From: Ostrea edulis
Lineage: Eukaryota
NCBI RefSeq assembly: GCF_947568905.1
Contig: NC_079167.1
Location: forward strand, 89,280,001-89,344,000
Direction of reading: 5' to 3'
DNA length: 64,000 bases
The stretch's first letter is position 1. The number at the start of each line of letters is the position of its first letter. Shown piece by piece: positions 21,998 to 23,467 of this stretch. Both the position numbers and the translations under genes were made by a program. Below the pieces are notes generated by a model, which made no database searches, was not told the origin of the DNA, and was given only the letters and a program-made list of their open reading frames with translations.

Positions 21998-22702
21998 CTA
22001 TAAAAATGCTTTCAACTTGGCAATATCCATCAACACAGTTAGTCCTGGCATTGACTCGAATTGTCTAATTTCTGCTGACTGTACAGTCCTGGAGGGTTCC
22101 TCCTGATCCTGCGCCTCAACCCGTGGGGGGCTACCAGGGGTGGAGGAACTGTCGCTACTCGAACTAGAGCTAGAGCTGGGGGTGGGAGATGGTCTCCTCT
22201 TCTGGGGCGAAGGGGTCAAAATCCTCGTTGCTGGCCTAGGGGAGGAACTCCTAGCACGGGGTCTTTTAGTACCATCGGAGGAATGACCTGAAGAGGGACG
22301 TCGCTTCTCTGTTCTCCAACTCTGGGTGGGAGAGGGTGACAACCTCCCACGAGGATGCAGGCTTATTTCCCTGGAATGTCCACGGCTGCTCCTGTCTACA
22401 GCGACACTAATAATGAATTGGTCCATATTCCTAACGTACCTTTCCAACTCATCCTCTGCTTCTCGACCAGAGAGGCCATCACTGCGCCGCATGACGTCCA
22501 TGCGGCGGGACGTACTATAACGTCCCGAGCAACTCGTGTGGTTGTCTCGACGGGGGAAAATCATTTGACATTCGGTGCAGACATATGCAAATCCTGAATG
22601 TTGTTCTAGGATATGTCTTTTTACTAGAAACTTCCTCTCGAACTCCTGAGAACTTTTGCACACCCCACACTTAAATAACCCTCTATCATCTGTTCTCGAC
22701 AT
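21998..22702 (-). CDS. Extra Gypsy ORF between pol and the 3' LTR: two zinc-finger-like motifs plus a Ser/Arg/Pro-rich tail (234 aa)
   Basis: CGVC-x14-H-x4-H and CTEC-x9-H-x2-C; uninterrupted ORF; ATG 1 nt after a ttccattttAG acceptor (22705-22704). Confidence 0.7.
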   Translation of the reverse strand: MSRTDDRGLFKCGVCKSSQEFERKFLVKRHILEQHSGFAYVCTECQMIFPRRDNHTSCSGRYSTSRRMDVMRRSDGLSGREAEDELERYVRNMDQFIISVAVDRSSRGHSREISLHPRGRLSPSPTQSWRTEKRRPSSGHSSDGTKRPRARSSSPRPATRILTPSPQKRRPSPTPSSSSSSSSDSSSTPGSPPRVEAQDQEEPSRTVQSAEIRQFESMPGLTVLMDIAKLKAFL

Positions 22703-23467
22703 TCTAAAATGGAATAATATACTAAGTGTAAATATAAATATAATATGATGTATTTGTTCTCTTCTATGAACAACCTTGGTGCAGCAAATCTACATGGCAT
22801 AAAAATATCTAACTAAGAGGGACAGGTCACTATAAATTCTAATAGAGTGAAATCCCATCAACACATACTGTCTTAATTAAAGCAACTTTAGAACTATTTT
22901 TGGTCAAGGAGGAATTCCATCTATAATACATGTACTACTAGTTCAACTCAGTTTTCTCACCCAGTTCCGGCATGAGTCCAAGAGAACTGTTAATATATAT
23001 TTCAAGCATCTATGCTTATAATAATGATTATTCTAGGATCCATCATCTAGGCACTAAAATGTCCTCAACGCGTGCAAACTACGCTACTAAACTATTCTGC
23101 TCAAGTTCCTGGGGGGCCCTCCCAAAGCGTGAACTCGGCCAATCTAACCTAGTTTCATTTTCCAGTATATTATCGGAGGCCAAAGACTCATGAAGGGGAT
23201 GCACCCATACATTGTACCTCAACTGAAATTTATAAATCTAATCTTCCCTAGAAAACGTTCAACTACTCACAGAATTCATAGGATCATGAGGGATGCACCT
23301 TGGGCTAATGTAATTCTGTATAATCTTTTCATAATGTAGTATGTCTCCATAAATACTACATTTTTAACATACAAGTATTATGGTCAACACTATTTATCTT
23401 CATAATGTTAACTAGGAACCACATCGATTCCTCCTATCTCAATCTAGTAAGTTTAATTTGCTTTAGC

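Follow-up and report, generated by a model that had tools for sequence, protein, structure and literature searches.

A zinc-finger accessory gene of mollusc Gypsy retrotransposons and its possible action on the LTR of its own family

The window, that is, the whole stretch of 64,000 nt of Ostrea edulis DNA that was analyzed, carries a Ty3/Gypsy LTR retrotransposon on its minus strand (table 1). Its pol shows the order RT–RNase H–integrase in Pfam, and TG..CA LTRs, a polypurine tract (PPT), and a short target-site duplication (TSD) are present, all as expected of this class. The gag gene and the primer-binding site (PBS) are missing in the window copy; gag is found in the close copy C2, and both features occur in complete relatives. 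At a distance of 765 nt from the pol stop (23468) lies an uninterrupted ORF of 234 aa (hereafter ORF3), followed by the PPT and the 3′ LTR, that is, in the env position, as the first-pass annotation of this DNA had it. The designation of a “third ORF” in that annotation holds for the family, in which six complete elements were found, but not for the window copy, since the latter is without gag and retains only 27 nt of the 5′ LTR.

Table 1. Features of the Gypsy element and its surroundings (positions within the window).
Feature	Position	Strand	Remarks
ORF3 accessory gene, 234 aa	21998..22702	-	ORF list; dN/dS against copies
Finger 1 (C2H2), residues 12–35	22598..22669	-	helix positions -1/+3/+6 are R23/L26/R29
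Finger 2 (C2HC), residues 42–58	22529..22579	-	near-invariant R51 at -1, D53 at +2
Strand-helix-strand extension of the finger domain, residues 66–100	22403..22507	-	conserved
Low-complexity linker, residues 106–200	22103..22387	-	basic, Ser/Pro/Arg-rich with poly-Ser; predicted disordered
C-terminal beta-hairpin and helix, residues 212–233	22004..22069	-	conserved; site of the BTB in relatives
Splice acceptor (pyrimidine tract and AG)	22704..22720	-	kept in 4/4 close copies
Candidate splice donor, GAG/GTATTT	21400..21411	-	93 nt past TATA; site of the mini-exon donor of relatives
Gypsy pol (RT, RNase H, integrase with p58 C-terminal domain)	23468..26799	-	5′-truncated; one frameshift near 24391–24460
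PPT	21879..21890	-	
3′ LTR, 1490 nt	20389..21878	-	96–98% identity to several solo LTRs
LTR TATA box	21495..21501	-	inferred promoter
Cluster of 14 CGGTG/CACCG	20623..21433	both	all past TATA; predicted ORF3 sites
AATAAA polyadenylation signal in LTR	20537..20542	-	
Very high-copy repeat	26737..27230		replaces most of 5′ LTR, gag, and protease
5′ LTR remnant, 27 nt	27231..27257	-	
TSD CAAG	27258..27261	-	partner 20385–20388
Harbinger Myb/SANT exon	27555..27986	-	
Harbinger transposase	18593..19554	+	

The Gypsy element is located inside the second exon of a Harbinger Myb/SANT gene (27986–20270, minus strand), the frame of which continues past the TSD. The four sequencing runs compared with the locus behave as DNA, and that none of their listed rows has a joint at the ORF3 acceptor has no bearing on expression; three of these four contain the empty-site joint of the Gypsy insertion, and a contig from a DNA-like run is identical to the window over the frameshifted stretch of pol. 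The window copy is probably dead, since its own promoter is missing together with most of the 5′ LTR. The intact frame of ORF3 beside a frameshifted pol was correctly observed in the first pass, but it weighs little: given one break per 3.3 kb of pol, a 705-nt ORF would remain intact with a probability of 0.81, and thus the intactness in this copy is no evidence of selection.

The window's family has about 40 LTR matches against only five loci with ORF3. The LTRs inspected are mostly solo LTRs, 90–98% identical to that of the window, and six of the seven high-identity matches with inspected flanks are solo LTRs with a 4-bp TSD. The internal region of the family was found upstream of none of eight high-identity LTR matches. 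The very high-copy repeat of approximately 450 nt enters the LTR at position 28 in the window and also concerns locus L098; several C7 LTR matches likewise begin at position 28, and one that was inspected is preceded by the same repeat. Elsewhere in the window, tandem arrays are located at 53614–54771, 55522–56141, 40485–41099, and 61671–62806, with units of 66, 31, 32, and ~167 nt, respectively.

The ORF3 protein begins with two zinc-finger motifs, C2H2-like and C2HC-like as first described, and the ligands of both are conserved in an alignment of 70 sequences. In detail, finger 1 has the spacing C12-x2-C15-x14-H30-x4-H35 and finger 2 the spacing C42-x2-C45-x9-H55-x2-C58. Finger 1 shows the classical beta-beta-alpha arrangement with Cys2His2 ligands, although its Pfam scores are under the cut-off; its Cys-His gap is of 14 residues in place of the classical 12, and finger 2, a C2HC with a gap of nine, departs from the canonical form and has no recognition helix in the AlphaFold model. 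In the alignment, Arg occupies +6 of finger 1 in 64/69 sequences, and finger 2 has Arg at -1 in 63/70 and Asp at +2 in 38/70. The model consists of a confident domain (approximately residues 9–100), a disordered linker, and the hairpin-helix of residues 212–233. Tandem DNA-binding C2H2 fingers are the best matches in the fold search of the finger domain, at a weak level (Z 4.0, rmsd 2.5–3.7, 56–77 residues aligned), and the domain taken as a whole had no clear counterpart in that search; the Atlas structure search returned generic C2H2 clusters only for this domain and no usable match for the C-terminal hairpin-helix.

The highest hydropathy over 19 residues is 0.83, therefore the protein lacks a transmembrane segment. 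An env or fusogen identity was rejected, as neither the hydropathy nor the AlphaFold model provides the signal peptide and membrane anchor of such proteins; the first pass had likewise decided against an envelope. The tail is, as described there, of low complexity, rich in Ser, Pro, and Arg, and contains poly-Ser, but it is not RS-rich: there are three RS/SR dipeptides in the 95 residues from 106 to 200. The candidate identity of an SR/RS-domain protein was also rejected, with extended RS repeats absent and no RRM detected by Pfam. The linkers of relatives range from basic to acidic, being often acidic or neutral, and thus the tail composition varies freely. The basic stretches KRPRAR and KRRP resemble nuclear localization signals. 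The C-terminal helix proposed earlier is indeed predicted, not alone but preceded by a beta-hairpin, and the hairpin-helix may serve as an oligomerization element in the window's sub-lineage.

Three protein searches of the oyster's own genome gave 46 other loci, some of them near-duplicates, all of which were fetched. A pol of at least 40% identity lies upstream on the same strand in 33/46 loci and on the opposite strand in 0/46, and an integrase is found within 1.2 kb in 28/46. Therefore, the linkage of homologues to Gypsy pol, a check that the first-pass annotation had proposed, holds. The remaining 13 loci are without a nearby pol match and include the four closest copies; these share spacer and LTR DNA with the window's element, one of them has gag, and the frame of ORF3 is broken in all four. 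Complete elements make up six of the first 19 loci, with LTR pairs 94–99.8% identical.

Outside this genome, a profile search gave 2111 matches; of the best 150, those matching over one or two stretches, 70 in number, were taken, and one of these turned out to be a poly-finger protein. The named relatives come from four bivalve genera (Crassostrea/Magallana, Pinctada, Pecten, and Mytilus) and the gastropod Gigantopelta, and four mussel gene models have an integrase fused to the finger domain. The mollusc models P0112, P0043, P0162, and P0293 belong to the ORF3 family; models of this family carry names such as serine/arginine repetitive matrix protein 2-like, trichohyalin-like, and potassium channel regulatory protein. 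In 40 other elements with the same PBS, the ORF3 domain was not found within 8.4 kb; many elements with that PBS (L150, L166, L180, L187, and others) lack a pol match over 8 kb and may be nonautonomous. A word-indexed protein search with the finger domain of the BTB type (see below) gave no match. Metagenome and viral scans returned no relative for the short, BTB-less type and one short broken contig, without pol and LTR, for the BTB type. ORF3 is an accessory gene conserved in a Gypsy lineage of molluscs, and not an envelope.

Against the four close copies, dN/dS is 0.10–0.22 for the finger domain (residues 1–105; upper bounds 0.22–0.41) and 0.27–0.45 for the rest of the protein, with one interval spanning 1. 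The ratio, therefore, is not about 1, the value by which the first-pass annotation would have been refuted; the respective value for pol against the sister family is 0.12–0.14, and many distant pairs are saturated. In the finger domain, changes at third positions are two to three times as frequent as those at first or second positions, also when CpG sites are excluded. Over the 24 loci in which both domains are sufficiently covered, the divergence of the integrase and that of the fingers are correlated (Mantel rho 0.70), and the two trees contain the same pairs except for L089. With its linkage to Gypsy and the purifying selection, the earlier idea of an accessory protein other than an envelope stands, without the flavor of an SR protein, given the variable tail composition.

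Most relatives in the oyster genome have an additional domain. A BTB_2 domain (Pfam) is located downstream of the fingers at 28/46 loci and in 17/70 database relatives, one of these just below the cut-off, and it is C-terminal in every relative having one. The modeled BTB of a relative is close to KCTD1, 15, 16, 13, 10, and 5, with a Foldseek TM of about 0.8 to KCTD1/15/16; these three are the nearest BTB structures, although the spread among the BTB matches is small (45 vs. 39 bits). The ORF3 of the window is without this T1-type BTB, and the hairpin-helix is conserved in its place in the window's sub-lineage. The possibility that the hairpin-helix is a BTB remnant was rejected, as the profile comparison was negative and 36/60 shuffles scored equally high. 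Loss of the BTB in this sub-lineage is the likely direction, because the window's family groups among BTB-bearing families under a midpoint root. The host genome has a CUL3 gene; a modeled complex between cullin 3 and two copies of the BTB, predicted without alignments, scored 0.02 and counts neither for nor against such binding. Giant viruses carry BTBs similar to those of the ORF3 family.

The acceptor that the first pass had noticed next to the start codon is real in sequence terms: an AG (22705–22704) stands one base ahead of the ATG of ORF3. Of the 22 distant loci with a placeable N-terminal end, 21 carry an AG upstream of the first Cys at a distance of exactly 15 or 18 nt, and 15 of these 21 have no ATG between the AG and that Cys. 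Among database proteins with at least seven residues before the first Cys, Gln at -6 or -7 occurs in 15/21, which fits a CAG; over the database proteins in general, 13 start within six residues and 35/69 did not fit the pattern. The oyster gene models P0006 and P0171 have three N-terminal residues in common and diverge immediately ahead of the ORF, as would result from a very short first exon spliced on in the phase of the window's acceptor.

The start codon seems to be provided by the LTR. A mini-exon with an ATG, in frame and ending in R[WM]/GTAA, lies ~70–125 nt past the TATA box in 8/14 located 3′ LTRs; among the LTRs without it, two of six are incomplete sequences, and a shuffled control gave 0–2 of 300 per LTR. 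Further cases bring the total to eight families, and none of 40 control elements has such a mini-exon. The window's family has its own ATG in ORF3, plus a donor-like LTR site at the same place (21408); a second candidate donor in the window LTR is at 21059. No conserved candidate donor was found in gag or in the gap between pol and ORF3. On the basis of the phase-fixed acceptor and of the ATG mini-exon and donor in the LTRs of eight families, we infer that ORF3 is made from an RNA spliced from the LTR donor to the acceptor.

The LTR of the window contains CGGTG/CACCG 14 times against 1.1 expected, and the word CGGTGC reaches a z of 17.6, with a null maximum of 8.3. The sister family shares the CGGTG word, and the alignment of its LTR to that of the window ends after the first 45 nt. 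Other families have other words, for instance TGGGA (11 vs. 1.5 expected) and TGGGT (11 vs. 2.3 expected), and further ones TGGGAG, TGGGT(A), and CGGGT. The motifs are located in the promoter-proximal region and not at the LTR tips, mostly past the donor in the transcribed part, and copies in opposite orientation could pair as hairpins. In LTRs of the BTB type (L040, L041, L039, and L064), two words are common across families whatever the finger code, CCGA(A/G)TTTCCTC in U3 and GGAGACCCAC near the 3′ end, which are probably host-factor or replication signals. The LTR has a CpG o/e of 1.17 versus 0.32 for pol; such an unmethylated-looking content is expected for any promoter.

In the recognition code of C2H2 fingers, residues +6, +3, and -1 read the 5′, middle, and 3′ base, with Arg, Lys, or His for G and Asn or Gln for A (PMC12264921). 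Engineered helices provide Q..H..R for GGA, T..H..R for GGT, R..E/V..R for GTG, and H..T..N for AGT (PMC5260015, PMC7317221). The natural finger-1 helices of the ORF3 family pair R..L..R with GTG, Q/N..H..R with GGA, L/H..H..R with GGT, and H..H..N with AGT, where the reading of Leu, His, and Asn at -1 and of Leu at +3 is by analogy and goes beyond the cited code. When a leading G, contributed by finger 2, is placed before the finger-1 triplet, the 4-mer so predicted is at rank 1 or 2 of 136 in 8/11 LTRs and at rank 8 in another, with two failures. The permutation p of 1e-4 for the match of code and motif is too small, since the families are related, and 8 of the 11 LTRs with part of a ninth had prompted the idea of the code. 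The family C1_95.9 was outside the permutation, its 3′ LTR being cut, and for the sister family, the finger 1 of which is damaged, the prediction was borrowed. At the level of the triplet, 9/10 lineages match with one clear failure, mostly among cases seen before the idea. One family alone carries Asn at +6, and AAGT is the first- or second-ranked 4-mer of its LTR.

Fresh LTRs gave mixed results: L071 and L075 have the predicted 4-mer at rank 1 (z 2.7 and 3.4), L082 is weak (z 1.6–1.7), C1_95.9 fails on the available sequence (GGTG z about 0), and in C4_25.96 the triplet fits and the leading G fails. The test of L072 was void, as its LTR matches its family over only about 70 nt. Six more LTRs of families already counted agree with the code and are not independent. 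Strong clusters are also found in LTRs without ORF3, where repeated 4-mers reach a z of 5–7 and GGGA tops 4/40; therefore, the evidence lies in the match to the finger code and not in the cluster itself. The finger residues track the repeated motif of the cognate LTR, which favors DNA binding over a role in splicing or export, both of which had been suggested in the first-pass annotation. That annotation had missed this tracking, the BTB of most relatives, and the start codon in the LTR mini-exon. Judging from the sequences compared, the ORF3 protein probably binds the LTR of its own family in a sequence-specific manner.

Genes between pol and the 3′ LTR that are under purifying selection are known from errantivirus env, mdg1 sORF2, and the esterase and exonuclease ORF3s of bdelloids (PMC13486581, PMC5408684). 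The known third genes of Gypsy elements are fusogens or enzymes (PMC13486581, PMC5408684, PMC13524379); unlike these, the mollusc ORF3 is soluble, with zinc fingers and, in relatives, a BTB. The relatives resemble KCTD and ZBTB proteins in joining a T1-type BTB fold with a DNA-binding-like finger pair. They differ in that the fingers come first and the BTB last, whereas the BTB of KCTD and ZBTB proteins is N-terminal (PMC12264921, PMC10856315), and in being element-encoded; the window protein has no BTB. A published zinc-finger or BTB ORF3 of Gypsy was not found among the openly accessible papers listed by the literature searches. The words “btb” and “zinc” are absent from the available text of two main mollusc surveys (PMC6238403, PMC10294476), and in PMC7084138 and PMC5029228 the terms KCTD/BTB appear solely in connection with host genes or as part of a grant code.

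With regard to action, two systems are comparable. The tas gene of foamy viruses is situated 3′ of pol and encodes a DNA-binding protein. Tas (Bel1) is a retroelement product that acts on the LTR promoter, and the major splice donor of these viruses lies within the R region (PMC3694450). ORF3 is similar in its place 3′ of pol and in its predicted action on the LTR promoter, but its family has C2H2/C2HC fingers with BTB, a start codon encoded in the LTR, and no env; Tas also uses an internal promoter, and the two are compared by predicted function, not by sequence or fold. The family-specific action of VANC from Arabidopsis VANDAL depends on a short motif present in high copy in its own element (PMC6719617). 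A family-specific short motif in high copy is also found in the ORF3 elements, although such clusters occur in unrelated LTRs too. In contrast, VANDALs are plant DNA transposons and demethylation has been shown for VANC; the likeness drawn here is one of predicted function. By these comparisons, ORF3 would represent an undescribed gene family, similar in action to Tas and VANC and a member of neither.

The proposed mechanism is as follows. A subgenomic RNA would be spliced from a donor in the R region of the LTR to the acceptor, bringing the start codon along in most families. Finger 1 would read three bases and finger 2 the preceding one, and the BTB, or the hairpin-helix in the window's sub-lineage, would multimerize the fingers, so that a word of 5–6 bp may gain specificity through 5–14 clustered copies. 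The outcome would be transactivation of the LTR or its protection from silencing. We give almost an even chance to the proposal that an oligomer of ORF3 binds the repeated motif of its own LTR and keeps the promoter active, by activation or anti-silencing. The sign of this action comes only from the analogy with VANC and Tas, and the KCTD partners point the opposite way.

An autorepressor, which would bind its own LTR and damp the transcription of the family as a control of copy number, has to be considered, unlikely as it seems. All 14 sites of the window LTR lie past the TATA box, repression is common for BTB-zinc-finger proteins, and KCTD1 is said to be a repressor. The nearest BTB structures, KCTD1, 15, and 16, have transcription factors or receptors, and not CUL3, as their partners (PMC10856315). 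These arguments are met by the small differences among the BTB matches and by the positive sign of VANC and Tas, which provide the precedents for short motifs in high copy or for a 3′ gene that acts on the LTR. If the sites were read in RNA, by a Rev/Rex-like factor controlling export or splicing through R/U5 of the element transcript, the position of the motifs in the transcribed part, their potential hairpins, the basic Ser/Arg/Pro tail, and the control required for a switch between spliced and unspliced RNA would be accounted for. Such a factor is quite unlikely, as the residue-base match obeys a code for double-stranded DNA, the RS/SR dipeptides are too few, and the linkers of relatives are often not basic.

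The frequency of BTB_2 among the relatives, the CUL3 gene of the host, and the similar BTBs of giant viruses agree with an adaptor that recruits cullin 3 while the fingers pick a host restriction factor, the BTB-less sub-lineage being derived. Many KCTDs are CUL3 adaptors, and global similarity does not separate binders (PMC10856315), which also softens the objection that the best sequence and fold matches are non-binders. However, one sub-lineage is under selection wholly without BTB and the motif match is left unexplained, which makes the adaptor very unlikely. An escort of the cDNA, in which binding to LTR motifs in the preintegration complex would assist nuclear entry or chromatin tethering, could draw on the sites on both strands and the NLS-like stretches; the sites, however, are promoter-proximal and not at the LTR tips, there is no evident packaging signal, and the idea seems highly improbable. 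Finally, a passenger without a role for the element, either a fragment captured from the host or an env in decay, is largely refuted and retains hardly any credibility. The broken frames of the close copies and the 13 loci without a nearby pol would fit it, but dN/dS far below 1, the co-divergence with the integrase, the conserved splice phase, the presence in several bivalve genera and a gastropod, and the absence of a hydrophobic segment all oppose it.

The VANDAL transposons of plants are an established case of sequence-specific counter-silencing by an element-encoded factor, and complex retroviruses one of trans-activation. Simple animal LTR retrotransposons, as far as is known, depend on host factors. 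Under the self-activating reading preferred here, we tentatively suggest a mollusc-wide Gypsy lineage that possibly carries its own programmable transcription factor, with an LTR-borne start codon, finger residues co-evolving with a motif array, and family-specific self-activation or anti-silencing. The shift of the finger code together with the LTR motif across families would form a natural experiment in protein-DNA co-evolution, and control from the side of the element could be put to a direct test with small proteins and reporters. Many gene models of molluscs that bear the names “BTB domain,” “potassium channel regulatory,” or “serine/arginine repetitive” protein would be explained as transposon products, and the solo LTRs would scatter a promoter, a start codon, and a splice donor across these genomes.
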